Assembly (NCBI GenBank): GCA_028695015.1
Contig: JAQVJR010000002.1
Location: forward strand, 706-64,705
Direction of reading: 5' to 3'
Origin: Minisyncoccota bacterium
Lineage (GTDB): Bacteria > Patescibacteriota > Minisyncoccia > UBA6257
DNA: 64,000 bases
The translations under genes and the position numbers were made by a program. Shown here one piece after another: positions 3,612 to 28,390 of this stretch. The notes under the pieces were generated by a model. It was not told the DNA's origin. It saw only the letters and a program-made list of their open reading frames with translations, and ran no database searches. Position 1 is the first letter of the stretch. Every line of letters begins with the position of its first letter.

Positions 3612-4640
3612 TTAAAAAATTCCTTTTATTTCTGTATTACATTTTGGGCATTTTCCATCTTGTATTTTATTCTCTATCATATCTAAACCCAACCTTTTAA
3701 TTAAAAGAAAATTACATTTAGGGCAATAAGTGCTTTCATATTCTGCATCTGGGGTATTGCCAATATAGACATATTTTAATCCTGCTTGTTTACCAATTTG
3801 ATAAGCTTTAATTAAGGATTCTTTTGGTGTTGAAGATATATCAACCATTTTATATCCTGGATAAAAAGCAGAAATATGCCAAGGAATATTTTCTGAAATA
3901 TTTTTTAAAAACTTAGCTATTTGTTGTAATTCTTTATCAGAATCATTAATTTTAGGAATAATTAATGTGGTTACTTCTAACCAAATACCCTTTTCATGGA
4001 TTTTTTTAATATTTTCTTTTACTGGTTCTAATCGAGCTTTACAGATATTTTTATAAAAGTCTTCAGAAAAACTTTTTAAATCTATATTAATTGCATCTAA
4101 ATAAGGACTGATTAGATTTAATGTTTCTTGACTCATAAAACCATTAGAAACCCAAATATTTTTAATCCCCTTTTCTTTAGCTAATTTCATTGTTTCATAA
4201 GCATACTCTGTCCAAATAGTTGGTTCATTATAAGTATAGGCAATCATTGGAATTTTACTTTCCAAACAATGTTGGACTATAGTTTCTGGCATCCAAGTTT
4301 CTTGTTGTCTTTCATATCCTGTTTGCCTAATAGCATCAATAGTTTTTGGTAATTGAGAAATTTCCCAATTTTGACAAAATTCACAACCAAAATTACAACC
4401 AATAGTGCCTAAAGAAAATATTTTCTCTCCAGGTAGAAAGTGGAAAAGAGGTTTTTTCTCTACAGGCTCTATATTAACGCTAATTGGCTTGTTATGAACT
4501 AATAGATATAGATCCCCTTGTTTGTTCTGTCTGACCCCACAAATGCCTGTTTGCTCTTCATTAACAATGCATTTATGTGAACAAGCAAGGCATTGGACCT
4601 TATTATCTGTTAGTTTTTTATAAAGAATGGCTTTTTTCAT
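3612..4640 (-). CDS. AmmeMemoRadiSam system radical SAM enzyme (PflA-like activase family)
   Basis: CNFGCEFCQN CxxxCxxC radical SAM motif plus an N-terminal extra Cys cluster (CLACSHKC...CGVRQN). Confidence 0.75.
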   Translation of the reverse strand: MKKAILYKKLTDNKVQCLACSHKCIVNEEQTGICGVRQNKQGDLYLLVHNKPISVNIEPVEKKPLFHFLPGEKIFSLGTIGCNFGCEFCQNWEISQLPKTIDAIRQTGYERQQETWMPETIVQHCLESKIPMIAYTYNEPTIWTEYAYETMKLAKEKGIKNIWVSNGFMSQETLNLISPYLDAINIDLKSFSEDFYKNICKARLEPVKENIKKIHEKGIWLEVTTLIIPKINDSDKELQQIAKFLKNISENIPWHISAFYPGYKMVDISSTPKESLIKAYQIGKQAGLKYVYIGNTPDAEYESTYCPKCNFLLIKRLGLDMIENKIQDGKCPKCNTEIKGIF

Positions 4641-9727: not shown

Positions 9728-10678
9728 TTATTTATCCCAAGGAAAATCATTACCAAAATGCCCCCATTGGCTAGTTTTGAAATAGATAGGTTTTCTTAAA
9801 TCTAGGAAATCAATAATTCCTTTAGGGGTTAAATCAAATCCTTTAATTTGTATTTCCTTATTATCTATTAGAGCACTTTTCATTAAAGGTTGTTTTTGGC
9901 CAATAGCATAAGCTAATTTAATTAAAACTTCTTTTGCCTTGTATTTTTTTAAATAACTTATGGCTATTTTCCTTGCCATATAAGCAGCACTACGATCAAC
10001 TTTTGAAGGGTCTTTGCCACTAAAGCAACCTCCACCAACAGGTATTCTTGGTCCATAACTATCAACAATAATTTTTCTTCCAGTTAAACCAGTATCAGCA
10101 TCAAACCCACCAATACTCCAATCACCACAAGGATTAATGCAATATTCTTTTGCTTTTATTAGAGATTTTACTAATTTCTCAAGATCTTTTTGAGGAACAT
10201 TTTGAAAACTAACAACTACTGTTGATATTTCTTTATTTTTTATTGTTACTTGGGTTTTGCCATCAAAGGGATATTTTTCATAAATCTTTTGACATAAATC
10301 CCTTGCTAGTTCATATTCTAAAGGCATTAAGCTTTTTGTCTCTTTAGTAGCATAACCAATCATAATCCCCTGATCTCCTGCTCCACCAATTTCTACTCCC
10401 TGGGCTATTTCTGGACTTTGTTCAACTAGATTAATACTTAAATTATAATTCTTATTAATTAAGCTATAAACAATATCTGTAATTTGTTTTTTACTAATCT
10501 TGGCTTTACTTTTAATTTCTCCAATAATGACAATTTTATTATGACCTCCGATAACTTCTATAGCTGTACGACTATCTTTATCTTTTTCAAGATAATAATC
10601 TAAAATCTTATCTGCAATTTGATCACAGGTTTTATCAGGATGTTTTGGAGAAACAAATTCTGCTGTTTTGATTTTCAT
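9728..10678 (-). CDS. metK: S-adenosylmethionine synthetase (short form)
   Basis: HPDKTCDQIAD N-terminal motif and GGGCFSGKDPSKVDRSAAYMAR signature. Preceded by a SAM-I riboswitch. Confidence 0.85.
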   Translation of the reverse strand: MKIKTAEFVSPKHPDKTCDQIADKILDYYLEKDKDSRTAIEVIGGHNKIVIIGEIKSKAKISKKQITDIVYSLINKNYNLSINLVEQSPEIAQGVEIGGAGDQGIMIGYATKETKSLMPLEYELARDLCQKIYEKYPFDGKTQVTIKNKEISTVVVSFQNVPQKDLEKLVKSLIKAKEYCINPCGDWSIGGFDADTGLTGRKIIVDSYGPRIPVGGGCFSGKDPSKVDRSAAYMARKIAISYLKKYKAKEVLIKLAYAIGQKQPLMKSALIDNKEIQIKGFDLTPKGIIDFLDLRKPIYFKTSQWGHFGNDFPWDK

Positions 10679-10744: not shown

Positions 10745-10856
10745 CTTATTATCCTTCCCTAAATTAGGGCTGGATTTAGCACCTTCTTTAAGAAGTCATC
10801 TTAAAGGGTTGCTGCCGGATCTCAGGACCAGTTTCCTCCCCGGACTCTTGATAACT
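10745..10856 (-). ncRNA. SAM-I (S-box) riboswitch aptamer
   Basis: Minus-strand RNA reads ...UUAUCAAGAGUCCGGGGAGGAAACUGGUCCUGAGAUCCGGCAGCAACC...AGGUGCUAAAUCCAGC...GGAAGGAUAAUAAGG. This matches the SAM-I consensus blocks (AUCAAGAG, GGAGGGACUGGCCC, GCAACC, GGUGCUAAAUCCAGC, GAUAAGA). GC-rich island upstream of metK. Confidence 0.8.
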
Positions 10857-10902
10857 AACAATATTCAATTATTTTGTATTATATCATGAGAAAAGAGTGA
10901 TT

Positions 10903-13869: not shown

Positions 13870-16377
13870 TTAAACAAAAGCATTTAGCCTAACATTATCT
13901 TTTATATATTCAGGGATTTTAGTTAAATAATCTTCTTTGCCAAGTTTTTGTAAAACCTCTATTATTGTTGGATCTCCAGCTAATTCATTAAAACGTTTTT
14001 GATTAATTACTGTTCGGAAGTTTTCATCTACTAAATAGCTTCTAAAAAATTCACGTGCTTCGTAATACAATTCCGGCTTAATTTCTGAATTAACTAAATA
14101 CTTTTCAAATTCTTCTTGCGCTAATTCATCTTTTGATTTAAAACGTGGAATACGTCCCAAAACTTTATCCATTATTTCCCAAAAGGAAATATGACGGTCA
14201 GCTTTATATCCTTGCCTAATACGCTCTAAGGTAAAGAAATCTTCTGGTTTATTGAATATATTTTCTTTAACAAACTGCTCCATTAATTCATAATCACCAT
14301 TCTTAATAGCTTCTTTAAATTCATTATGTTTTTTAGCAGCCTCTTTAACTGTATTTTCAAACCGGCTAATATAAAGTTCTTTATCTACACGCATTATATT
14401 TCCTTCAAAAGTCATTACTTCCATCATCTTTAAAGGATCAGGGATGTTAATTGAAGTTTTATCAACTAATGGTACTGGGGCTAGCTTTTCTGTTATGCCT
14501 TTTTTTCTTGGAGGTAATTTAATAACTTGATCATAGGGATATTTCGTTTCAAAATATTCACAATTAGCAAAAAAATCAAAAAGTTTATACCCTTCCTTTG
14601 TTTTTCTCACTTCATTATCTCTATCTGAATGCTTAAAAGTATAAATACGAGTACCACGTCCTTTAATCTGAACAAAATCAGTTGGTGAAAAAATTGGTCT
14701 CATTAAACAAAGATTTAATACATCTTGGCAATCATAACCAGTTGTCATCATTCCAACAGTTACACAAACTCTTGTTTTGCTAGACTTATAACCTTCTAGA
14801 AATTTAGTAAATCCATTAAGTTTATTATTAGCAAAATTAATAGTCATTTTTTGAGCACTTGGAACATCTGAAGTAATCTGAACAGCAAAATCAGAATTGT
14901 ATTTTTCAGGAAACATTTTCATAGCAAATTCATTTAATATCTGAGTAATCTTTGAAGCGTGCTTACGACTAACACAGAACACGATTGTTTTTCCTATTTC
15001 ATTAGTTATGGGATCACGTTCAGCATTATCCATAAATGCTTTTACGAATTCAGAATTTGTTTGTTCGGAAAAGAAATTTCTTTCAAAATCACTTTGGTTA
15101 TAAATAACTTGTTCTTCTTCCCCTTCCTCTGTTTGTACCTGTACTGCATAACCTTCATCAGATAAAAGCTGAGTCGTTATTTCTGTACGACAATCTATGG
15201 CTGTTGGTAAAACCAAGAATCCATCTTTGGCACCATCAACTAGTGTATAGCGAAAAGTTGGTTCACTGCTCTCACACCCAAATGTTTTATAAGTAGATAA
15301 AAGATTGCGTCTTTCCATTTCTCTAGGATCACGTTCATTAATATCTTTCTGACTAAGATTTTTAAGATAATCTTTTGGAGTAGCAGTTAAACCTAATTTA
15401 TGGCCAATAAAATATTCAAAAATGGTGCGACTATTTCCAGAAATTGAACGATGGGCTTCATCAGAAATGATTAAATCAAAATCAGTGGGCGTAAAGATTT
15501 TAAGATATTTATTATTATGAGAAATGCTTTGGACTGTGGTAATAACAACTTCAGCTTTACGCCAATCATCTCTATTCTGTTTAAAAATAACTGTATGATA
15601 ATCTGGCTGTAAGAATTTTTTAAATGCTTTTTCAGCTTGATTTTCTAATTCCAAACGGTCAACTAAAAACAAAACACGGCGTGCATTGTTAGTTTTAAGA
15701 TAAAGCTTAATAATTGCAGAAGCAAGAACTGTTTTACCAGTACCTGTTGCCATTTCAAAGAGAAAGCGATTTTTACCCTCAGAAACAGCTCTTTGTAAAG
15801 ATTTTATAGCATCAAGTTGATATTGACGAAGAAAATGTAAGCCAGTATCAAAAATAAATGACTGCCTTTTTTGTTCATCAGGCCATCGTGGGTCTTGTTC
15901 GTAAAAAGGGTTTTGAGTTAAGGCAATATAATTTTCTTTTATTTCTTCCTTTATAATTTTATTAGTATCTGGAGTAAATTCTTTATTACCTTTTAAGCTT
16001 TGAAGGGTTGGAAATGTAGAAATTCTTGTTGGATTGCCTAATTCTTTATCCCAAAAATAATGAATATTACCATTAGAAAGAATGATAAAGCGAACATTTT
16101 GACTATTAGCATATCGGCGAGCTTGCTCCTTGCCAATTAAAGGATCTTTACTTTCAGATTTTGCTTCTAAAACACAGATTGGAAAGTTTTGATTATCTAA
16201 TAAAAGATAATCTACAAAACCTGTACTAGATTTTTGAAAATCATTTCCCAGCTCCTCTATTTCAATATTACCTTCTAGTTTTATATTTGCTTTTCCATCT
16301 TTATTATCAAAAAATCTCCAACCAGATTTTTGGAGCAAATCATTAATTTTAATCCTCGCCCTTGCTTCTTTTTCCAT
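13870..16377 (-). CDS. hsdR: Type I restriction enzyme R subunit (compact, 835 aa)
   Basis: N-terminal PD-(D/E)xK nuclease (VLEAKSES...QARRYA). SF2 ATPase motifs MATGTGKT and SDEAHRS. 5 bp upstream of hsdMS. Confidence 0.8.
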   Translation of the reverse strand: MEKEARARIKINDLLQKSGWRFFDNKDGKANIKLEGNIEIEELGNDFQKSSTGFVDYLLLDNQNFPICVLEAKSESKDPLIGKEQARRYANSQNVRFIILSNGNIHYFWDKELGNPTRISTFPTLQSLKGNKEFTPDTNKIIKEEIKENYIALTQNPFYEQDPRWPDEQKRQSFIFDTGLHFLRQYQLDAIKSLQRAVSEGKNRFLFEMATGTGKTVLASAIIKLYLKTNNARRVLFLVDRLELENQAEKAFKKFLQPDYHTVIFKQNRDDWRKAEVVITTVQSISHNNKYLKIFTPTDFDLIISDEAHRSISGNSRTIFEYFIGHKLGLTATPKDYLKNLSQKDINERDPREMERRNLLSTYKTFGCESSEPTFRYTLVDGAKDGFLVLPTAIDCRTEITTQLLSDEGYAVQVQTEEGEEEQVIYNQSDFERNFFSEQTNSEFVKAFMDNAERDPITNEIGKTIVFCVSRKHASKITQILNEFAMKMFPEKYNSDFAVQITSDVPSAQKMTINFANNKLNGFTKFLEGYKSSKTRVCVTVGMMTTGYDCQDVLNLCLMRPIFSPTDFVQIKGRGTRIYTFKHSDRDNEVRKTKEGYKLFDFFANCEYFETKYPYDQVIKLPPRKKGITEKLAPVPLVDKTSINIPDPLKMMEVMTFEGNIMRVDKELYISRFENTVKEAAKKHNEFKEAIKNGDYELMEQFVKENIFNKPEDFFTLERIRQGYKADRHISFWEIMDKVLGRIPRFKSKDELAQEEFEKYLVNSEIKPELYYEAREFFRSYLVDENFRTVINQKRFNELAGDPTIIEVLQKLGKEDYLTKIPEYIKDNVRLNAFV

Positions 16378-16490
16378 TATTTCTGAATTTTTCTATAATT
16401 CTATTTATTTAAATAAAAAACCCCCACCGTTTTTATACTATATCATTTTTTTGGAAAACAAGGAATGCTTAGGGTATAATAAGAAACATC

Positions 16491-18065
16491 ATGAAAAATC
16501 AAGAAAAATTAGCTCAAATAATAGTAGAAAGAGCTAATAAACAACAAGTATCTACTAAACAAGAGATTATTGAAATTCAAAGGGAAGTTAGTAAAGAATT
16601 TCATAATTTTTTTATTCCTTTTTCTGAATTATTAAAAAGCTATAAAAAATTAATTCAATTAAAGAAAATCCTACCTAATAAACAATTAGAAGGATTGTTA
16701 AAAAAAGCTAGAATTCGTTCTTTATCAGGCATTGTAGCTATTACTGTAATTACTAAACCTTATCCTTGTCCAGGAAATTGTTTGTATTGCCCTGATATAT
16801 CTAATATGCCTAAAAGCTATTTACCTGATGAACCAGCTTGTATGCGGGCTTTATTAAATAAGTTTGATCCATATAAGCAAATCCAAATGAGAACTCAAGC
16901 TTTAAGAGCTAATGGACACCCAACAGATAAAATAGAATTAATTGTCTTAGGAGGTACCTGGTCATATTATCCTAAAAAATACCAAAATTGGTTTATTAAG
17001 AGATGCTTTGATGGAGCTAATAATAAAACATCTAAGAGCTTAGAATTAGCTCAAAAGATTAATGAAAAAACAGATAATAGGATTATTGGTCTAACAATAG
17101 AAACTAGACCTGATTATATTAATCTAGAAGAAGTAGAAAGATTAAGAAAATTAGGTGTTACTAGAGTGGAATTAGGAATTCAAAGCCTAGAAGATGATGT
17201 TTTAGAATTTAATAAAAGAGGTCACTTAGTTGATCAAACCATAAAAGCAACAAAATTATTGAAAAATGCTGGATTTAAAATCACTTATCATATGATGCTT
17301 AATTTACCTGGTTCTGATTTAAAAAAAGATGAAAAGATGTTTGTTAAACTATTTTCTAATCCTGATTTTCAACCAGATCAATTAAAAATCTATCCTTGTG
17401 CTGTTTTAAAAACCGCACCTTTGTATAAAATGTTTTTAGATAAACAATACCAACCATATACAGAAAAACAGCTAATAAATCTTTTAATTAAAATCAAAGA
17501 GGAAATCCCTTCATATGTTAGGATTATCAGAATCATTCGTGATATTCCTGCTAATAATATTATTGCTGGGAATAAAGTTTCAAATTTAAGACAAGTAATT
17601 CAAGCTCAGATGAAAGAAGAAAACAAATCCTGTCAATGTATAAGATGTCGAGAACCTTATGATATTCCAATTGATTTTAAGAATGTTAAATTAATTCACA
17701 GAGAATATATGGCTCATAATGGTAAGGAAATCTTTCTTTCTTATGAAGATGTAAAAAACAACAAGATTTTAGCTTTTCTAAGATTGCGTTTACCAAATGA
17801 ATGGACTTTTCCTTATCTTAAAGATTCTGCTCTCATACGTGAATTACATAGTTATGGTATAGTGGCGCCTTTAAAAAAAGACAAGAAATCTAATATCCAA
17901 CATAAAGGTTTGGGTAGTAAATTAATGAAACAAGCAGAAAAGATTGTTAAAGAACATACTCAATATAATAAAATAGCCGTGATTAGCGGCATAGGAGTTA
18001 GAGAATATTATCGTAAATTAGGATATCGTTTATCTAATACTTATATGATAAAGAAACTTTTGTGA
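16491..18065 (+). CDS. elp3: Elp3-like radical SAM + GNAT acetyltransferase (tRNA uridine-34 acetyltransferase homolog)
   Basis: Elp3-type N-terminus RSLSGIVAITVITKPYPCPGNCLYCP. C-terminal GNAT region (HKGLGSKLMKQAEKI). Length 524 aa. Confidence 0.8.
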   Translation: MKNQEKLAQIIVERANKQQVSTKQEIIEIQREVSKEFHNFFIPFSELLKSYKKLIQLKKILPNKQLEGLLKKARIRSLSGIVAITVITKPYPCPGNCLYCPDISNMPKSYLPDEPACMRALLNKFDPYKQIQMRTQALRANGHPTDKIELIVLGGTWSYYPKKYQNWFIKRCFDGANNKTSKSLELAQKINEKTDNRIIGLTIETRPDYINLEEVERLRKLGVTRVELGIQSLEDDVLEFNKRGHLVDQTIKATKLLKNAGFKITYHMMLNLPGSDLKKDEKMFVKLFSNPDFQPDQLKIYPCAVLKTAPLYKMFLDKQYQPYTEKQLINLLIKIKEEIPSYVRIIRIIRDIPANNIIAGNKVSNLRQVIQAQMKEENKSCQCIRCREPYDIPIDFKNVKLIHREYMAHNGKEIFLSYEDVKNNKILAFLRLRLPNEWTFPYLKDSALIRELHSYGIVAPLKKDKKSNIQHKGLGSKLMKQAEKIVKEHTQYNKIAVISGIGVREYYRKLGYRLSNTYMIKKLL

Positions 18066-18068
18066 TTT

Positions 18069-18611
18069 TCATATTATCTTAATGTATTTTTTAGAAAAAA
18101 TATTTCCTAAGAAAAAATCTTTTTCTTTCATTTTTTTATCAAATTCTTTTTTAGCAAGTTCTATAGAATTAATTTCCCTACCGCTTAATCGTTGAATTTC
18201 TAAAAGATGTTTTTGAAGCTCAAGAGTATCAAAATCCCCAATAATTAAAAGATCTATATCGCTTTCTGGAGAAAGTTTATTATCAGCATAAGGCCCAAAA
18301 ATATAAATAGAATCAATGCCTTTTATTTTTTCCAATCTTTCTTTTAGAATTTTCTCAAACCCGATTTTTTTTAATACAATATTTCGATATTCTTTTAAAA
18401 GTGGATAATTTTTATTAATAAAAAAATAACGTTGATTTCCTTGAAATTCATCATCTAAAATCCCTTGCTCTTTAAGTTCTATAAGTTTTGTATGCACATT
18501 TTTAGGATCTTCTTTGATTATTTTGGCTATTTCATTAATATAAAACCTTTCATCCTCATTAAGGAAGAAATAATTAAGAAGTTTTTTTGTGATTTTAGAG
18601 CGTATGACCAT
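18069..18611 (-). CDS. wHTH + minimal nucleotidyltransferase (MNT/Pol-beta family) protein
   Basis: N-terminal winged HTH (YINEIAKIIKEDPKNVHTKLIELKEQGIL). NTase motif IYIFGPYADNKLSPESDIDLLIIGD (GS...DxD). No HepT partner seen. Confidence 0.6.
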   Translation of the reverse strand: MVIRSKITKKLLNYFFLNEDERFYINEIAKIIKEDPKNVHTKLIELKEQGILDDEFQGNQRYFFINKNYPLLKEYRNIVLKKIGFEKILKERLEKIKGIDSIYIFGPYADNKLSPESDIDLLIIGDFDTLELQKHLLEIQRLSGREINSIELAKKEFDKKMKEKDFFLGNIFSKKYIKII

Positions 18612-18618
18612 ATTCCCT

Positions 18619-18661
18619 TATGGTTAATTTCTACCATAATTATGGTAAATTTTTACCATAA
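18619..18661. promoter_or_regulatory. Operator-like array of ACCATAA/TTATGGT half-sites, including the 16-bp palindrome TACCATAATTATGGTA
   Basis: Seen directly, 8-50 bp upstream of the wHTH-NTase gene start. Confidence 0.35.
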
Positions 18662-18676
18662 AAGCAAGTCCAGAAT

Positions 18677-19237
18677 TTATTTTATAGAAAACTCACAACC
18701 ACAGTATTTTTGAGAATAGAGGTTGTGTTTTTTAATTAATTCTTGTTCTTTTTGATAAGCTTGAAAAGGTTCTAAATCAAAGGTTATATATTTAAGATTA
18801 TTTTGTTTAGCTATCTTAAAACCATAGTCATTAATAAACTTAATATCTTTAAAACGATTAATACTTAAAGTTGTAGCAAATTCTTTAAAACCATTTTCTT
18901 TTGCAAATTCAACTGTTTTATCTAAACGAAAAGCAAAACAATTTAAACATCTTTTATCATTTTCTAAATAAGATTCTAAAGAATGTAATAATGATTTTTT
19001 AAGATATTCAAGCCATTTATCATGCTCATATTCATCAATAATTAATTTTAGATTATAAATCTCAGAGATTTTCTTAACTTGTTCTAATCTTTTAATATAT
19101 TCTTGTTTTGGAAAAATATTAGGATTGTAAAAATACAAAACAATGTCTTTGTTTTGTATTTCATTTAATAAATATTCAATTATGGGTAAGGCACAAGGAG
19201 CGCAACAAGTATGAATAAGCATAGAATTAAATTTCAT
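18677..19237 (-). CDS. queH: Epoxyqueuosine reductase QueH (DUF208)
   Basis: HTCCAPCA N-terminal Cys motif and size (186 aa) typical of QueH. Adjacent to tgt and queA. Confidence 0.7.
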   Translation of the reverse strand: MKFNSMLIHTCCAPCALPIIEYLLNEIQNKDIVLYFYNPNIFPKQEYIKRLEQVKKISEIYNLKLIIDEYEHDKWLEYLKKSLLHSLESYLENDKRCLNCFAFRLDKTVEFAKENGFKEFATTLSINRFKDIKFINDYGFKIAKQNNLKYITFDLEPFQAYQKEQELIKKHNLYSQKYCGCEFSIK

Positions 19238-20336
19238 CTCTAAGTTTATGAATTAACCTTATCATGAATCTTAAATTATGAATAGAAGCTAATCTAAGAT
19301 AAAGAGGTTCTTTTACAGAATAAAGATGATTAAGATAAGCCCGAGAGAAATTTTGACAAGTATAGCAATCACAATTTTCTTCTATGGGCTGAATATCTTT
19401 TTTAAATTGACTATTAGAGATACGAATATTCCCCTGTGCTGTATAAAGAGAACCATGTCTGGCAGTTCTTGTTGGGGCAACACAATCAAACATATCAACT
19501 CCCCTTTTAACAACTTCAATAATATCTTGAGCTGAAGAACCTAAGCCCATAGTATATCGAGGTTTGTTTTCTGGTAATAAATCCTGAAGATAATCAAGAA
19601 TTTCTAAAGTACGAGGCATATTATAACCAATTGTTTCTCCACCTAAGGCAATACCATCAAAATCTAAACTGGTAATAAACTTAGTTGATTCTTTTCTCAA
19701 ATCTTCAAAAATACCTCCTTGGATAATACCAAAAATTAGAGGTGGTTTTTTATCTTGATTTTGATATTGTTTACTTAATTCTTGATGTTTTTTTAAAGAT
19801 CTTAAAGCCCATTTATGAGTTCTGTTCATGGATTTTTTAGCATATTCTTTATCATCATTATCAGGACTGCATTCATCAAAAGCCATAATAATATCAACGC
19901 CTAATTTATGTTGAATTTCTATTGATTTTTCAGGAGTAATAAAATGCTTAGTACCATCTATTGGTGAAGAAAATTCAATACCATCCTCTCTAATTTTAGC
20001 CATATTTTTACCACTTTTAGTCCTATTTTGACCAAAACTCCATGCTTGAAACCCCCCAGAATCGCTCAGAATAGGCCCAGACCAGTTCATAAACGAATGA
20101 ACACCTCCTAGGTCATAAATTAGGTTTTCACTTGGCTGAAGAGCTAAATGAAGAGTATTGACTAAAAGAATTTCTACACCTATTTTACTTAAATCATCAG
20201 GCCCAATAGCTTTTACACTAGCTTGAGTCCCAGGAGGCATAAAAATAGGGGTTTGAAAATCTCCATGATTTGTACAAACCTTACCTAAGCGAGCTCTATC
20301 TTTTTTAGATTTTTTTAATATTTTAAACATAGGCAT
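19227..20336 (-). CDS. tgt: Queuine tRNA-ribosyltransferase
   Basis: Tgt motifs FMPPGTQASVKA and GLGSSAQ. Zn site CDCYTCQNFSRAYLNHL. Confidence 0.85.
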   Translation of the reverse strand: MPMFKILKKSKKDRARLGKVCTNHGDFQTPIFMPPGTQASVKAIGPDDLSKIGVEILLVNTLHLALQPSENLIYDLGGVHSFMNWSGPILSDSGGFQAWSFGQNRTKSGKNMAKIREDGIEFSSPIDGTKHFITPEKSIEIQHKLGVDIIMAFDECSPDNDDKEYAKKSMNRTHKWALRSLKKHQELSKQYQNQDKKPPLIFGIIQGGIFEDLRKESTKFITSLDFDGIALGGETIGYNMPRTLEILDYLQDLLPENKPRYTMGLGSSAQDIIEVVKRGVDMFDCVAPTRTARHGSLYTAQGNIRISNSQFKKDIQPIEENCDCYTCQNFSRAYLNHLYSVKEPLYLRLASIHNLRFMIRLIHKLRDEI

Positions 20337-21379
20337 TATTGAATAAACATTGCATCACCAAAAGAAAAAAACCTGTATTTTTTATCAATAGCTTGTTGAT
20401 AAGCTTTTAAAATTAAATCTTTATTTGCAAAAGCTGAAACTAATATTAATAAGGTTGATTTTGGTAAATGAAAATTAGTAATTAAAGCATCTACAAACTT
20501 AAATTCATATCCTGGGTAAATGAATAAATTTGTCCAATCTTTTTTTGATTGTAATTTAGAATTATGTATACAAGATCCCAAAACTCTTACTGTGGTTGTT
20601 CCAATAGCAATAATTCTTTTTTTATCTTTTTTTGCTTGATTTAATCTTTTAGCAGCTTGTTCATTTAATTCAAAAAACTCTGAATGCATTTGGTGATCTT
20701 GTATATTCTGAACCTTAACTGGAAGAAAAGTTCCTAAACCAACATAAAGGGTTACATATTCTATTTGAATATTCTTTTCTTTTATTTTATCTATCAAGTC
20801 TTTTGTAAAATGAAATCCAGCTGTAGGCGCAGCAACAGAACCATATTTTTTAGCATAAATAGTTTGATATTCTTTAAAAGAGCGTTGAGTGGGTTGGGTT
20901 ATATATGGTGGCAATGGAGCTTGGCCTAGAGATAAGATTTCTTTTTTTAATTCCTCACCTGTTTTATTAAAACTAATTATTCTTTCATAATTTACTTTTT
21001 CTTTGATTTTTCCAAATAAATTATCATTGAATTTTATTCTTTGCCCTGTTTTTAATTCTGGTTTGCCAATAATTACCCAATCTGTGGGCCAAGTTATAAA
21101 ATCAAAAACTTGTTTATCTTGAGGACGAATAAGAAGAATTTCTACCTTACCCTGAGTATTTTCTTTTTTACCATAAATACGTGCTGGCACAACCTTGCTA
21201 TCATTAAAAACTAAAACATCATTTTCTGAAAGATAATCAATAATATTATAAAAGTACTCATGTTGTATTTTTTCAGTTTTTCTATCTAATATTAAAAGAC
21301 GAGAATGATCTCGCATCTCTGTTGGCTCTTGAGCTATTAATTTTTTTGGTAAATGATAATTAAATTGAGAGATATCCAT
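20336..21379 (-). CDS. queA: S-adenosylmethionine:tRNA ribosyltransferase-isomerase
   Basis: N-terminal FNYHLPKKLIAQEP, length and family-wide similarity. Confidence 0.85.
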   Translation of the reverse strand: MDISQFNYHLPKKLIAQEPTEMRDHSRLLILDRKTEKIQHEYFYNIIDYLSENDVLVFNDSKVVPARIYGKKENTQGKVEILLIRPQDKQVFDFITWPTDWVIIGKPELKTGQRIKFNDNLFGKIKEKVNYERIISFNKTGEELKKEILSLGQAPLPPYITQPTQRSFKEYQTIYAKKYGSVAAPTAGFHFTKDLIDKIKEKNIQIEYVTLYVGLGTFLPVKVQNIQDHQMHSEFFELNEQAAKRLNQAKKDKKRIIAIGTTTVRVLGSCIHNSKLQSKKDWTNLFIYPGYEFKFVDALITNFHLPKSTLLILVSAFANKDLILKAYQQAIDKKYRFFSFGDAMFIQ

Positions 21380-21780: not shown

Positions 21781-22710
21781 TCAATTAGATTCTTGTTCAG
21801 CTAACCATTTATCAGCATCTATCAAAGCCATAGCTCCCCAACTAGCAGCAGTGATTGCTTGTTTGTATTTAGCATCACAAACATCACCAGCAGCAAAAAC
21901 ACCTTGAATAGATGTTTTGGTATTTTCTGTTATTTTAATAGAATCATCTTTATTTAATTCTATTTGTCCTTTTAAAATATCTGTATTAGGTTGATAACCA
22001 ATAGATAAGAATAAACCATTTACTTCTAATAATTTCTCTTGATTGGTTTTTACATTTTTAATGTTAATACCATTTAAGAAACTATCCCCTTTTAATCCTG
22101 TTATTATTGAATCCCAAATAATCTCTATCTTTGGATGATTTAAAACTTGCTCTTGATTTCTTTTAGAAGCTCTTAAACTATCTCGACGATGAATGATAAA
22201 TACTTTTTCAGCATATTTAGTCAAAGTAATGGCATTTTTTATAGCACTATCACCACCACCAACAACAGCAACAGTTTTATTCTTAAAGAAAAAACCATCA
22301 CAAATAGCGCAAACAGAAATACCACGACCAATTAATTCTTTTTCTCTTTCCAAGCCTAGCCATTTATTAGAAGCACCAGTAGCAATGATTATGGCTTTTG
22401 ATAAATATTCTTTACCTTCATGAGTTTTTACTGTAAAAGGTCTTTTTTTAAAATCCACTGAGATAATATTTTTATCTAAAATCTCAGTTCCAAATTTCTT
22501 AGCTTGAGTAGTTATCTTTTCTAAAAGCTCAGGACCACTTAATTTTTCTGGAAATCCAGGAAAATCTTCTATGGCTTCACAAAGCATTAATTGACCCCCT
22601 GGAGGCGAGCCAGTAAATAACAAAGATTTAAGTTGAGCCCGACCAGCATAAATACCCGCAGTTAAACCAGCAGGACCACCACCAATAATAATAATATCGT
22701 ATAATTCCAT
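21781..22710 (-). CDS. trxB: Thioredoxin-disulfide reductase
   Basis: FAD motif IIIIGGGPAGLTAG. Redox-active CAICDG. NADPH GGGDSA motif. Confidence 0.85.
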   Translation of the reverse strand: MELYDIIIIGGGPAGLTAGIYAGRAQLKSLLFTGSPPGGQLMLCEAIEDFPGFPEKLSGPELLEKITTQAKKFGTEILDKNIISVDFKKRPFTVKTHEGKEYLSKAIIIATGASNKWLGLEREKELIGRGISVCAICDGFFFKNKTVAVVGGGDSAIKNAITLTKYAEKVFIIHRRDSLRASKRNQEQVLNHPKIEIIWDSIITGLKGDSFLNGINIKNVKTNQEKLLEVNGLFLSIGYQPNTDILKGQIELNKDDSIKITENTKTSIQGVFAAGDVCDAKYKQAITAASWGAMALIDADKWLAEQESN

Positions 22711-22767
22711 TAATTTATTCTACCAGTTTTAGCTTTATAATAGCAAATAAGCCTCTTATTAAATAAA

Positions 22768-22860
22768 AGAGAGATAATTTACAAAGTAAATTATCTCTCT
22801 GGTGACTCTCTTCTGCAAGCAGAAGAGAGAGCCCCACCGTTTGACGATCAAAAGATCGTC
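22768..22860 (-). promoter_or_regulatory. trxB 5' leader with three consecutive perfect hairpins; the proximal one is terminator-like (attenuator candidate)
   Basis: H1 GACGATC-AAAA-GATCGTC (22843-22860). H2 CTCTCTTCTGC/GCAGAAGAGAG (22806-22829). H3 14-bp stem AGAGAGATAATTTA/TAAATTATCTCTCT (22768-22800), followed on the minus strand by UCUUUUAUUU. Divergent TTGAC-type promoters flank H1. Confidence 0.4.
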
Positions 22861-22951
22861 AAGAATATTATGGCAAATATGATTTAAAAGTCAAGATTTT
22901 TTAAAACATAGTATTCTAAATTTAAAATTGTTAAAATATGTTTAATATATC

Positions 22952-24385
22952 ATGGAAAGTAAAAAAGAATTTATTAAAGATAAAAAGATATTAATTGTTG
23001 GCCTAGGTTCTTTAGGTGGTGGTATTGCTACTAGTCTTTGGTTTTTAAAACAAAAAGCCAATATTACCATTACAGATTTAAGAGATAAGAGAGATTTAAA
23101 ACAATCTTTAAATAAATTAAAACAATATTCCTCAAGAATAAAATTATCTCTTGGCGGCCATAATAAGAAAGATTTTAAAAACCATAATCTTATAATTATC
23201 AACCCTGGGGTTAAAATCAAAAACAATCCATATCTCCAAATAGCAAAAAAAGAGAAAAACCTAATAGAAAATGAATTAAGCTTGTTTTTGAGATTTAACC
23301 AATCTCCTTTAATAACAATTACTGGTACTAGGGGCAAAACAACAATTACTAATTGGATTGGATATTTATTAAAAGAAAAATATCCCCAAACCATTATTGG
23401 CGGTAATATACCTGAAAGTCCAGTTTTATCTTTTTTAAATAAAACCAAAACAAATGTCCCGGTTGTTTTAGAATTATCCAGTTTTCAATTAGAAATATTA
23501 AAAAACAAATATCAAGGACCTAATATAGCTATCATTACTAATTTATACCGAGATCATCTTAATCGCCATGGCAATATGAAAAACTATGCAATGGCTAAGG
23601 CTAATATATTTAAAAATCAACAAAAAACTAATTATCTAATATTAAACTATCAAGATAAATGGACTAAATTCTTTCTTTCCTTAAAACCTAAAAGTCAAAT
23701 TTATTTCATATCAAACAAACCCCTTGCTTTGAATAAGAACGGGGTTTTTAACCAAAATAATAATATATATTTCCAAGAGAATAAGAAAAAACAATTAATT
23801 TTAAATGCAAAAGGATTTTCTAAACAATGGGGAGAACATAATTTAAGTAATTTAATGTTTTCCATTTTAGCTGCTAAGTTATTTGGCTTAAGTTTTACTC
23901 AAATTAAAAAACAAATACCAAAACTACCTCAAATGACATTTCGTCAACAAATAGTATATCAATTAGATACAAGGCTCTTAATAATTAATGACAGTTGCGC
24001 CACAACTCCAGAAGCAACAATAGCTGCCTTAAAAAGGTTTTCTAATAAACAAAATAACCTTATTTTAATTACTGGGGGCACTGATAAAGATCTAAAATAT
24101 GATGAATTAGCTAAACAAATCAAAAAAACCATATCACCAAAGAATTTAATCATCCTTAATGGCTCTGCTAGTGTAAAATTAATCAAAGAATTAATTAAAA
24201 TAAAATATTCTAATAATTATTCAGTTTTTGAATCATTAAACGAATGTTTATCTTATAGTTTGTATTTAAGAAAACATAAAAAAGATATTATTCTTTTTTC
24301 TCCAGGGGCTACTAGTTTTGAAAAGTTCCTAAATGAATTTGATAGAGGGAAAACATTTAATACTTTAATCAAGGAGATAAAATAA
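22952..24385 (+). CDS. murD: UDP-N-acetylmuramoylalanine--D-glutamate ligase
   Basis: ILIVGLGSLGGG Rossmann motif and ITGTRGKTT P-loop. Mur ligase family length. Confidence 0.8.
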   Translation: MESKKEFIKDKKILIVGLGSLGGGIATSLWFLKQKANITITDLRDKRDLKQSLNKLKQYSSRIKLSLGGHNKKDFKNHNLIIINPGVKIKNNPYLQIAKKEKNLIENELSLFLRFNQSPLITITGTRGKTTITNWIGYLLKEKYPQTIIGGNIPESPVLSFLNKTKTNVPVVLELSSFQLEILKNKYQGPNIAIITNLYRDHLNRHGNMKNYAMAKANIFKNQQKTNYLILNYQDKWTKFFLSLKPKSQIYFISNKPLALNKNGVFNQNNNIYFQENKKKQLILNAKGFSKQWGEHNLSNLMFSILAAKLFGLSFTQIKKQIPKLPQMTFRQQIVYQLDTRLLIINDSCATTPEATIAALKRFSNKQNNLILITGGTDKDLKYDELAKQIKKTISPKNLIILNGSASVKLIKELIKIKYSNNYSVFESLNECLSYSLYLRKHKKDIILFSPGATSFEKFLNEFDRGKTFNTLIKEIK

Positions 24386-24420
24386 AAAAGGAGGTATGCC
24401 CTCCTTTTGTTTTTTATTTT
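24384..24420. terminator. Bidirectional terminator
   Basis: AAGGAGG-TATG-CCTCCTT hairpin with an A-run upstream and a T-run downstream. Confidence 0.55.
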
Positions 24421-27784: not shown

Positions 27785-28390
27785 TTATTTAGATTTTTCA
27801 GAAAGCCTTATATATTTAATTAATTTATAACCATCAATTAATTCAATTGGTTTATCTTCTGCGAATCTTTCAGCTTCTAAGGTAAAGTTATTTGTTGTAA
27901 TAAAAAACCCTTTAGCCTGAGCTAAATGATTAGCAATTGCGCCATAGAAATCCCTAATTTCACTAACACTTACTGTTGAAGTAATATATTTCTTACATTG
28001 GATATAATGCTTTAAACCATCTTTTTCTGCTATAACATCTATTCCTCCATCATAACCACTGCCAGTAACAGTAGTTTTATATCCTAATTTTGTAAATAAT
28101 TCAGCAATGTATTTTTCAAATTCCCATGGTTTTAATCCTTTTAACCACTTCAATAGTTCTCTATCGGTATGCCATTGACTTTGTTTATGAACTTTTGATC
28201 TTTTAATAAAGATTGCTACAATAATCAAAATTCCTAAAAAGACGATTCCCCATAATAGCATCTTCCAAAAAAAAGGTTTGTTAACCCATGCAAAAAATAA
28301 TAAAAAAATCACATAGACAATGCTTATCTCTGTTAAAATATCCCCAAGTACTTTTCTCCATTTATTTTTTCTTGACATAATTTTATTCAT
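27785..28390 (-). CDS. Membrane-anchored Mrr-type restriction endonuclease domain protein
   Basis: Two N-terminal TM helices. Mrr_cat-like GYDGGIDVIAEKDGLKHYIQCKKY (D..D/E.K). Confidence 0.6.
   Translation of the reverse strand: MNKIMSRKNKWRKVLGDILTEISIVYVIFLLFFAWVNKPFFWKMLLWGIVFLGILIIVAIFIKRSKVHKQSQWHTDRELLKWLKGLKPWEFEKYIAELFTKLGYKTTVTGSGYDGGIDVIAEKDGLKHYIQCKKYITSTVSVSEIRDFYGAIANHLAQAKGFFITTNNFTLEAERFAEDKPIELIDGYKLIKYIRLSEKSK

Follow-up and report, generated by a model that had tools for sequence, protein, structure and literature searches.

The 241-bp gap between trxB and the divergent murD gene contains three hairpins in tandem, and this arrangement raises the question of whether they form a conditional leader of trxB, a DNA-level control site for the neighbouring promoters, or an RNA gene in its own right. 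A preliminary description of this DNA took the hairpins for a structured trxB leader with an antiterminator/terminator switch, and also proposed that the first palindrome could be a repressor operator. The window, that is the whole 64-kb stretch that was analysed, is identical to contig JAQULI010000001.1 of MAG GCA_028718665.1, and its close relatives carry the label Candidatus Paceibacterota (also Pacebacteria or Parcubacteria), a CPR lineage. To our knowledge, the regulatory RNAs of CPR bacteria (Patescibacteria) have hardly been explored, since these bacteria have not been cultured and their tiny genomes contain few known regulators.

The locus and its hairpins

The gene trxB, which encodes a thioredoxin-disulfide reductase, is followed on its 3′ side by an 88-aa ORF, queA, tgt and queH, in that order (18069-21379, minus strand). 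A further tRNA-modification gene, an Elp3-like ORF with radical SAM and GNAT domains, lies near the queA-tgt-queH cluster at 16491-18065 on the plus strand. Elsewhere in the window there is a SAM-I riboswitch (10746-10857, minus strand; 75.8 bits, E = 5.5e-16) upstream of a 316-aa ORF (9728-10678, minus strand), and a symmetric hairpin, AAAAGGAGG-loop-CCTCCTTTT, at 24386-24408, which is called a terminator on both strands and is located directly 3′ of murD, ahead of a convergent small ORF. The features of the trxB-murD region are collected in Table 1.

Table 1. Features of the trxB-murD region and of one related locus, with the basis of each assignment
Feature	Position	Strand	Basis
trxB (thioredoxin-disulfide reductase)	21781-22710	-	ORF list; Pfam families and gene order; homologues named thioredoxin reductase
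Separate trxB promoter, outside the sRNA (TTGCTA, 18 nt, TGGTAGAAT), predicted	22717..22746	-	promoter scan
Hairpin 3, intrinsic terminator, predicted sRNA 3′ end	22761..22800	-	terminator scan; compensatory changes
UCACC, 3′ strand of P2a, partner of GGUGG	22801..22805	-	alignment
Hairpin 2 distal stem (P2b), CUCUCUUCUGC-UU-GCAGAAGAGAG	22806..22829	-	inverted repeat; two-sided changes
GGCU, 4-nt bulge	22833-22830	-	RNAalifold prediction
GGUGG, strand of base helix P2a	22838-22834	-	RNAalifold prediction
Invariant core: linker AA(A), then ACGGUGGGGCU	22830..22842	-	alignment columns 23-33 invariant
Hairpin 1 (P1), GACGAUC-UUUU-GAUCGUC	22843..22860	-	inverted repeat; 100% paired in 22 sequences
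sRNA promoter, predicted	22867..22894	-	promoter scan, 10/12 with TG; conserved in 26 distinct copies
Likely murD promoter -10, TGTTAAAAT	22929..22937	+	sequence; extended -10 scan
murD	22952-24385	+	ORF list; identity from Pfam
sRNA region AAACGGUGGGGCU			
tRNA-Asn locus behind the element in L115	L115 2806-2880	-	

The three perfect inverted repeats of 18, 24 and 33 nt that had been described in the gap were all found exactly as claimed. The arms of hairpin 1 lie at 22841-22849 and 22854-22862, with a 7-bp core of GACGATC/GATCGTC that spans 18 nt including the loop; those of hairpin 2 lie at 22806-22816 and 22819-22829 (11 + 2 + 11 = 24 nt), and those of hairpin 3 at 22768-22782 and 22786-22800 (15 + 3 + 15 = 33 nt). 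Hairpin 3 had been called a canonical intrinsic terminator with a 14-bp stem, and it is indeed called as a terminator, with a stem that counts 15 bp (22800-22768; 4 G-C pairs, about -19 kcal/mol) and is followed on the minus strand by the U-run UUUAUUU (22767-22761). The distance from the end of this stem to the trxB ATG (22710) is the 57 nt given earlier.

The minus-strand RNA of 22700-22870 folds at -59.1 kcal/mol, as compared with -31.7 +/- 3.6 kcal/mol for dinucleotide shuffles (z = -7.6), and 0 of 200 shuffles folded equally well. The element is single-copy in the 64-kb window, where a covariance model built on it scores 114.6 bits at this site and 22 bits at the next best; a repeat or mobile element was rejected as its identity, given that the hairpin 3 arm and the covariance model each match one copy in 64 kb.

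Conservation of structure and sequence among relatives

Comparison with related genomes, which had been named as a way to check the hairpins for covariation, was carried out with 22 distinct element sequences from approximately nine lineages, in which TrxB is 57-96% and MurD 60-97% identical to the window proteins. Seven other assemblies with an identical TrxB were uninformative, because their intergenic regions are identical to the window as well. A second source of relatives was contigs encoding TrxB at 63-96% identity, and a third was metagenome contigs scanned with a pattern composed of the hairpin 1 3′ arm plus the junction, which yielded 23 loci, including one false positive in GC-rich coding sequence. 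The collection pattern required both the hairpin 1 arm and ACGGUGGGGCU, so the apparent invariance of these two segments is inflated where loci came from metagenomes; the loci obtained by way of the TrxB protein, which were aligned separately, are free of this bias. The same pattern scan of viral contigs gave 5 chance matches only, four of which scored 12 bits.

The hairpins are kept in all 22 sequences. The RNAalifold consensus contains hairpin 1, a long hairpin 2 whose base is GGUGG/UCACC with a GGCU bulge, and hairpin 3; of its 37 pairs, 21 have changed on both sides in a compensatory manner, and 99.5% of the 813 pair cells in the alignment are paired. None of 500 shuffles reached any of these measures, and slid controls were only 43-55% paired. 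Approximately 87 cells are G-U pairs that would be A-C mismatches if the plus strand were read, so the RNA is a minus-strand transcript. The strand assigned to the element in the preliminary description is thereby upheld, since the U-run, the promoter and the G-U pairs all fit the minus strand.

Conservation is uneven along the element. Hairpin 1 is 100% paired in the 22 sequences, with C-G changes to U-A and G-U, and its loop varies among GNRA, UUCG and UUUU. In the core, 11 nt (columns 23-33) are invariant in all 22 sequences across the nine or so lineages. The base helix P2a is paired in 100% of cells, yet it lacks two-sided changes: in its UCACC strand the U, C and A are invariant and the CC nearly so, the sole changes being C to U in L015 and L115, which give G-U pairs. 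Thus the hairpin 1 stem and ACGGUGGGGCU...UCA(C/U)C show invariance or wobble-only changes, while the distal part of hairpin 2 and the whole of hairpin 3 vary freely in sequence. In P2b, 9 of the 10 aligned pairs changed on both sides, and both the sequence and the loop differ freely across lineages; in hairpin 3, 11 of the 15 pairs show compensatory changes, and no trxB-linked copy has lost the U-run.

These substitutions bear directly on the proposal that the palindromes work as DNA, either as dimeric-repressor operators for the murD and trxB promoters or as remnants of mobile elements. That proposal draws on the perfect symmetry of the repeats and on the TTGACG within hairpin 1, which resembles a murD -35, and we regard it as extremely improbable. 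The G-U substitutions preserve RNA pairing, and in one orientation only, while they break the symmetry of the DNA (columns 8-15, for example, are U-G in 8 of 22 sequences); the arms of hairpins 2 and 3 change completely with pairing kept; the window contains a single copy of the element and no repeat family; and both hairpin 1 and the element as a whole are conserved in lineages where murD is not adjacent (L015, L098 and L100). The operator reading of hairpin 1 therefore fails, because its substitutions fit a minus-strand RNA only and it persists away from murD.

Other identities were also considered for the element. A leader peptide or small ORF was rejected because the reading frame is not conserved and its ends differ by lineage: the 40-aa GUG ORF at 22715-22837 stops after 15-18 codons in other lineages, and the indels of 2 + 2 nt in hairpin 2 are not multiples of 3. 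The element had no match in Rfam 15, even at E = 10, in searches of the region, of the entire window and of four related loci; the best sub-threshold score for it was that of STnc300 (28 bits, threshold 80), and E exceeded 0.1 for every other hit. T-box, preQ1 (I/II/III) and SAM riboswitches gave no model hits to the element, and the T-box and preQ1 architectures differ from it. SRP (4.5S) RNA was likewise rejected, as there was no Rfam hit and the element has three successive hairpins with variable, non-GNAR hairpin 2 loops; SRP RNA forms a single long hairpin in which the 5′ and 3′ ends pair, and it carries a GNAR tetraloop as well as conserved symmetric and asymmetric loops. Apparent likenesses to 16S rRNA helix 11 (GGUGGGG...CUCACC), to the acceptor 5′ strand of tRNA-Ala or tmRNA (GGGGCU) and to the T-box bulge are at odds with the conserved pairing, and we make no claim from them.

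Promoters, gene context and the transcription unit

The predicted sRNA promoter of the window is of the extended -10 type, with a -35 of TTGACT (22894-22889), a 16-nt spacer ending in TGC and a -10 of CATAAT (22872-22867). The same architecture is common to 26 of 26 distinct copies, which share TTGAC or TTGAT (TTTGCT in L115), a spacing of 16-18 nt, TGn and TATAAT; in every one of these copies 5-7 nt separate the end of the -10 from the G of GACGAUC. On the basis of this spacing the RNA is predicted to start at the first base of hairpin 1, G 22860 +/- 2 nt. At the other end, all trxB-linked copies finish in a hairpin plus U-run. Both ends of the sRNA, as well as the sRNA and trxB promoters, are thus predictions from consensus and conservation.

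Between the terminator and trxB lies another promoter. In the window its extended -10 (22717-22725) ends 6 nt before the trxB ATG, and in 24 of 24 scored distinct trxB-linked copies TGnTAnAAT occurs in the stretch from the terminator to trxB, at a distance of 6-36 nt from the ATG (L119 was left out of this scoring on account of an insertion). The sequence around this conserved motif diverges between copies. Because a conserved extended -10 precedes its ATG, trxB appears to have its own short-leader promoter, like other genes here, and its mRNA is predicted to be leaderless or nearly so. One clade also contains a short repeat family, TCGAGCAAAGCGAGAAA..GGTTCT.., both dispersed and in tandem with a period of ~56 (L112 883-935 and 2967-3070; L122 2087-2250; L119 ~3679-3735, minus strand). 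In L119 a 54-nt copy of this repeat lies in frame near the trxB start and adds 18 codons after residue 6, and in L112 a copy is situated between the sRNA terminator and the trxB promoter.

The region had also been described as carrying divergent trxB and murD promoters, with the murD -35 inside hairpin 1. A minus-strand promoter does stand back-to-back with the murD side, although the placement of the murD -35 is superseded by a better candidate, the likely -10 TGTTAAAAT, 14 nt before the murD ATG (22952). Such motifs are common in this window: 12 of the 54 long ORFs have an extended -10 in the 60 nt ahead of them, where the background rate would be 0.03 per 60 nt (~8x enrichment), and the motif lies 6-16 nt from the ATG in six ORFs, namely trxB, murD and those at 28390, 36783, 51932 and 58656. 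Shine-Dalgarno-like motifs are nearly absent. The genome thus seems to use mostly extended -10 promoters near start codons and leaderless or very short-leader mRNAs, a habit that, with the missing Shine-Dalgarno sequences, bears on how its genes and intergenic regions are annotated. With such mRNAs as the norm, there is no need for a leader upstream of trxB.

The genes that flank the element differ among lineages on both sides. In most lineages the upstream neighbour is the divergent murD, but rplJ-rplL, a tRNA and a small ORF lie between the element and the murD side in L015/L124 and L100, and GGDEF and small ORFs are upstream in L098. Downstream, trxB adjoins the element in about eight of nine lineages, even with the upstream neighbour changed, and separation from trxB was seen in one lineage only, represented by one contig (L115). 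There the element (67 bits) has an intact core and its own promoter and adjoins murD, and it is followed by TTGACA-N17-TATACT, tRNA-Asn(GUU) and then unrelated genes, on a contig without trxB. The RNA is therefore tied to neither neighbour, as its context changes both upstream (murD, rplJL or GGDEF) and downstream (trxB or tRNA-Asn). Conversely, in more distant Paceibacterota/Minisyncoccia trxB sits inside operons, 5 nt after the preceding gene and without the element, and among the matches listed the element was upstream of trxB in 0 of 79 further bacterial and archaeal loci, including other Patescibacteria, which are mostly distant TrxB loci at 46-56% identity with L018 the informative one. 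The element is restricted to one clade of Candidatus Paceibacterota.

With a promoter in all 26 distinct copies and a unit that stays intact while its neighbours change on both sides, we conclude that 22760-22860 (minus strand) is probably an independently transcribed non-coding sRNA gene of ~100 nt, with its own predicted promoter and terminator. A strong sigma-70-type promoter (-35 plus extended -10) would make the first G of hairpin 1 the start site. From 5′ to 3′, the RNA would then consist of this hairpin, a short linker, the long helix that has the invariant GGUGG/UCACC base and GGCU bulge, and the 15-bp terminator as its 3′ end. Transcription of trxB would begin anew from its own extended -10 just past the terminator, giving a leaderless or short-leader mRNA. 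The sRNA is probably highly expressed.

In the rival reading that follows the preliminary description, the element is instead the 5′ leader of trxB(-queA-tgt-queH), with hairpin 3 as a conditional terminator; a ligand, a redox signal or a protein would decide the outcome by way of the alternative pairing between the 5′ arms of hairpins 2 and 3. This proposal accommodates several observations: the terminator and trxB share a strand and are 57 nt apart, the element stays with trxB while upstream genes change, an invariant structured core beside a terminator resembles an aptamer with its expression platform, a 7-nt alternative pairing exists in the window, and matched A:C duplexes are slightly more stable than mismatched ones (-8.0 versus -6.8 kcal/mol; permutation p = 0.026, with relatedness ignored). 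The CUCUCU/AGAGAG pairing on which the switch depends is thus present in the window; however, it is weak here (-9.3 kcal/mol) and not conserved. Across homologues its energy ranges from -3 to -12 kcal/mol, as compared with -15 to -25 for hairpin 2 and -19 to -24 for hairpin 3, and it falls 10-20 kcal/mol short of either hairpin that would need to be displaced. In lowest-energy folds of the RNA truncated at the terminator loop, the 5′ arm of the terminator is free of upstream sequence in 22 of 22 homologues, forming a weak internal stem of 4-5 bp in 6 of them, and the antiterminator never appears in these co-transcriptional folds. On the alignment, the antiterminator pairing is present in 70% of cells, not clearly above slid controls at 47-62%, and its three central pairs are broken in 12-18 of the 22 sequences. 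Energies, co-transcriptional folds and pair counts therefore all contradict a switch. A trxB attenuator is unlikely for further reasons: it would serve a gene without a promoter of its own and would always lie upstream of that gene, whereas a conserved promoter stands between the terminator and trxB, the RNA has a conserved promoter and terminator of its own, the L115 copy precedes tRNA-Asn on a contig that lacks trxB, other Paceibacterota trxB genes have no leader of any kind, and no riboswitch family matches.

An intermediate possibility is that the RNA is a separate unit, yet its transcription tunes trxB, either because the core brings a factor to RNA polymerase (processive antitermination, like put or EAR) or because the trxB promoter is occluded. 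The tight tandem layout would suit such a dual or protein-dependent cis role, as would the terminator U-run of the L102-L127 clade, which reaches the -35 region of the trxB promoter, and the sequence conservation of the core, which exceeds what folding explains. We consider this role very unlikely, since no factor has been identified, L115 has the same RNA ahead of a tRNA gene, and nothing in the data demands it. A minor cis role at trxB is nevertheless thinkable, because the element lies beside trxB in approximately eight of nine lineages despite the upstream changes; read-through of the terminator or promoter interference at trxB may have a small effect on trxB-queA-tgt-queH.

Function of the core and comparison with known systems

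For the independently transcribed sRNA, it is the invariant core that suggests a function. The RNA would act in trans through hairpin 1, the AAAC and the bulged helix as a recognition site, and the variable helices would serve as structural scaffolding and terminator. The core is probably a binding site, and a protein or other defined partner is likelier than a linear pairing seed, because the P2a strands and the hairpin 1 stem keep their sequence, in contrast to the freely varying distal helices. More specifically, the core could be an aptamer or protein site that modulates terminator read-through, or could act in trans on redox or queuosine functions, which we regard as quite unlikely; if true, a sensing or recruiting core of this kind would represent a new class of riboregulator specific to CPR bacteria. 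The gene that follows the sRNA in L115, tRNA-Asn(GUU), encodes a queuosine-modified tRNA that is a substrate of Tgt, and the queuosine-related neighbours of the sRNA at both kinds of locus may point to a connection with queuosine or may be coincidental.

A search of the 64-kb window for complements of the core returned one site with 1 mismatch and two with 2 mismatches, the latter two antisense to ORFs; no target or partner of the sRNA was found in this search. The 1-mismatch site (16420-16430) is a same-sense motif on the minus strand, where AAAACGGTGGGGGTTTT at 16417-16433 repeats the core. This word, rare and G-rich in an AT-rich genome, occupies the -35 position ahead of an HsdR-like helicase ORF of 835 aa (13870-16377), from which it is ~45 nt away, and its likeness to the core is probably due to chance.

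In the literature no description was found of the motif sequence, nor of such an sRNA in CPR bacteria. With its covariation, conserved promoter and terminator, invariant 11-nt core and absence from Rfam 15, the locus is a well-supported candidate for a bacterial sRNA, a kind of RNA not yet described from this lineage, and at ~100 nt the RNA is short enough to be synthesised for pull-downs or in-line probing. At the same time an attractive reading, a redox riboswitch for thioredoxin reductase, is judged to be wrong.

Three kinds of known RNA invite comparison with the element. Terminator-type riboswitches, such as the SAM-I riboswitch in the window and the terminator-embedded HMP-PP thiS riboswitch (PMC6478431), also have a structured domain 5′ of a terminator, upstream of a metabolic gene and on the same strand. 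Unlike them, the element has no conserved alternative pairing that links the domain to the terminator, is parted from the gene by a conserved promoter, precedes a tRNA gene in its L115 copy and matches no riboswitch model.

Protein-binding regulatory or scaffold RNAs with a conserved bulged helix are exemplified by the asymmetric loop in helix 8 of SRP RNA. A possible lead is that this RNA shares with the element an invariant asymmetric bulge (4-5 nt on the 5′ side versus 0-1 on the 3′ side), a length of ~100 nt and a strong-looking promoter. The element differs in that it has neither the GNAR tetraloop nor the symmetric loop, its 5′ and 3′ ends do not pair with each other, and it has no Rfam SRP hit.

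The RoxS/RsaE-type sRNAs of Firmicutes are independently transcribed RNAs that begin with a hairpin, end in a Rho-independent terminator and have a conserved region in between. In contrast to these RNAs, the element is found in a CPR host, it has no known target or chaperone and no sequence or Rfam similarity to any described sRNA, and its invariant region is G-rich and partly within a bulged helix rather than being an open C-rich seed. What the two share is their overall organisation: a length of ~100 nt, a sigma-70-type promoter of their own, a stable 5′ hairpin, an intrinsic terminator as the 3′ end, one invariant region flanked by helices in which only structure is conserved, and an intergenic position between divergent or tandem genes.
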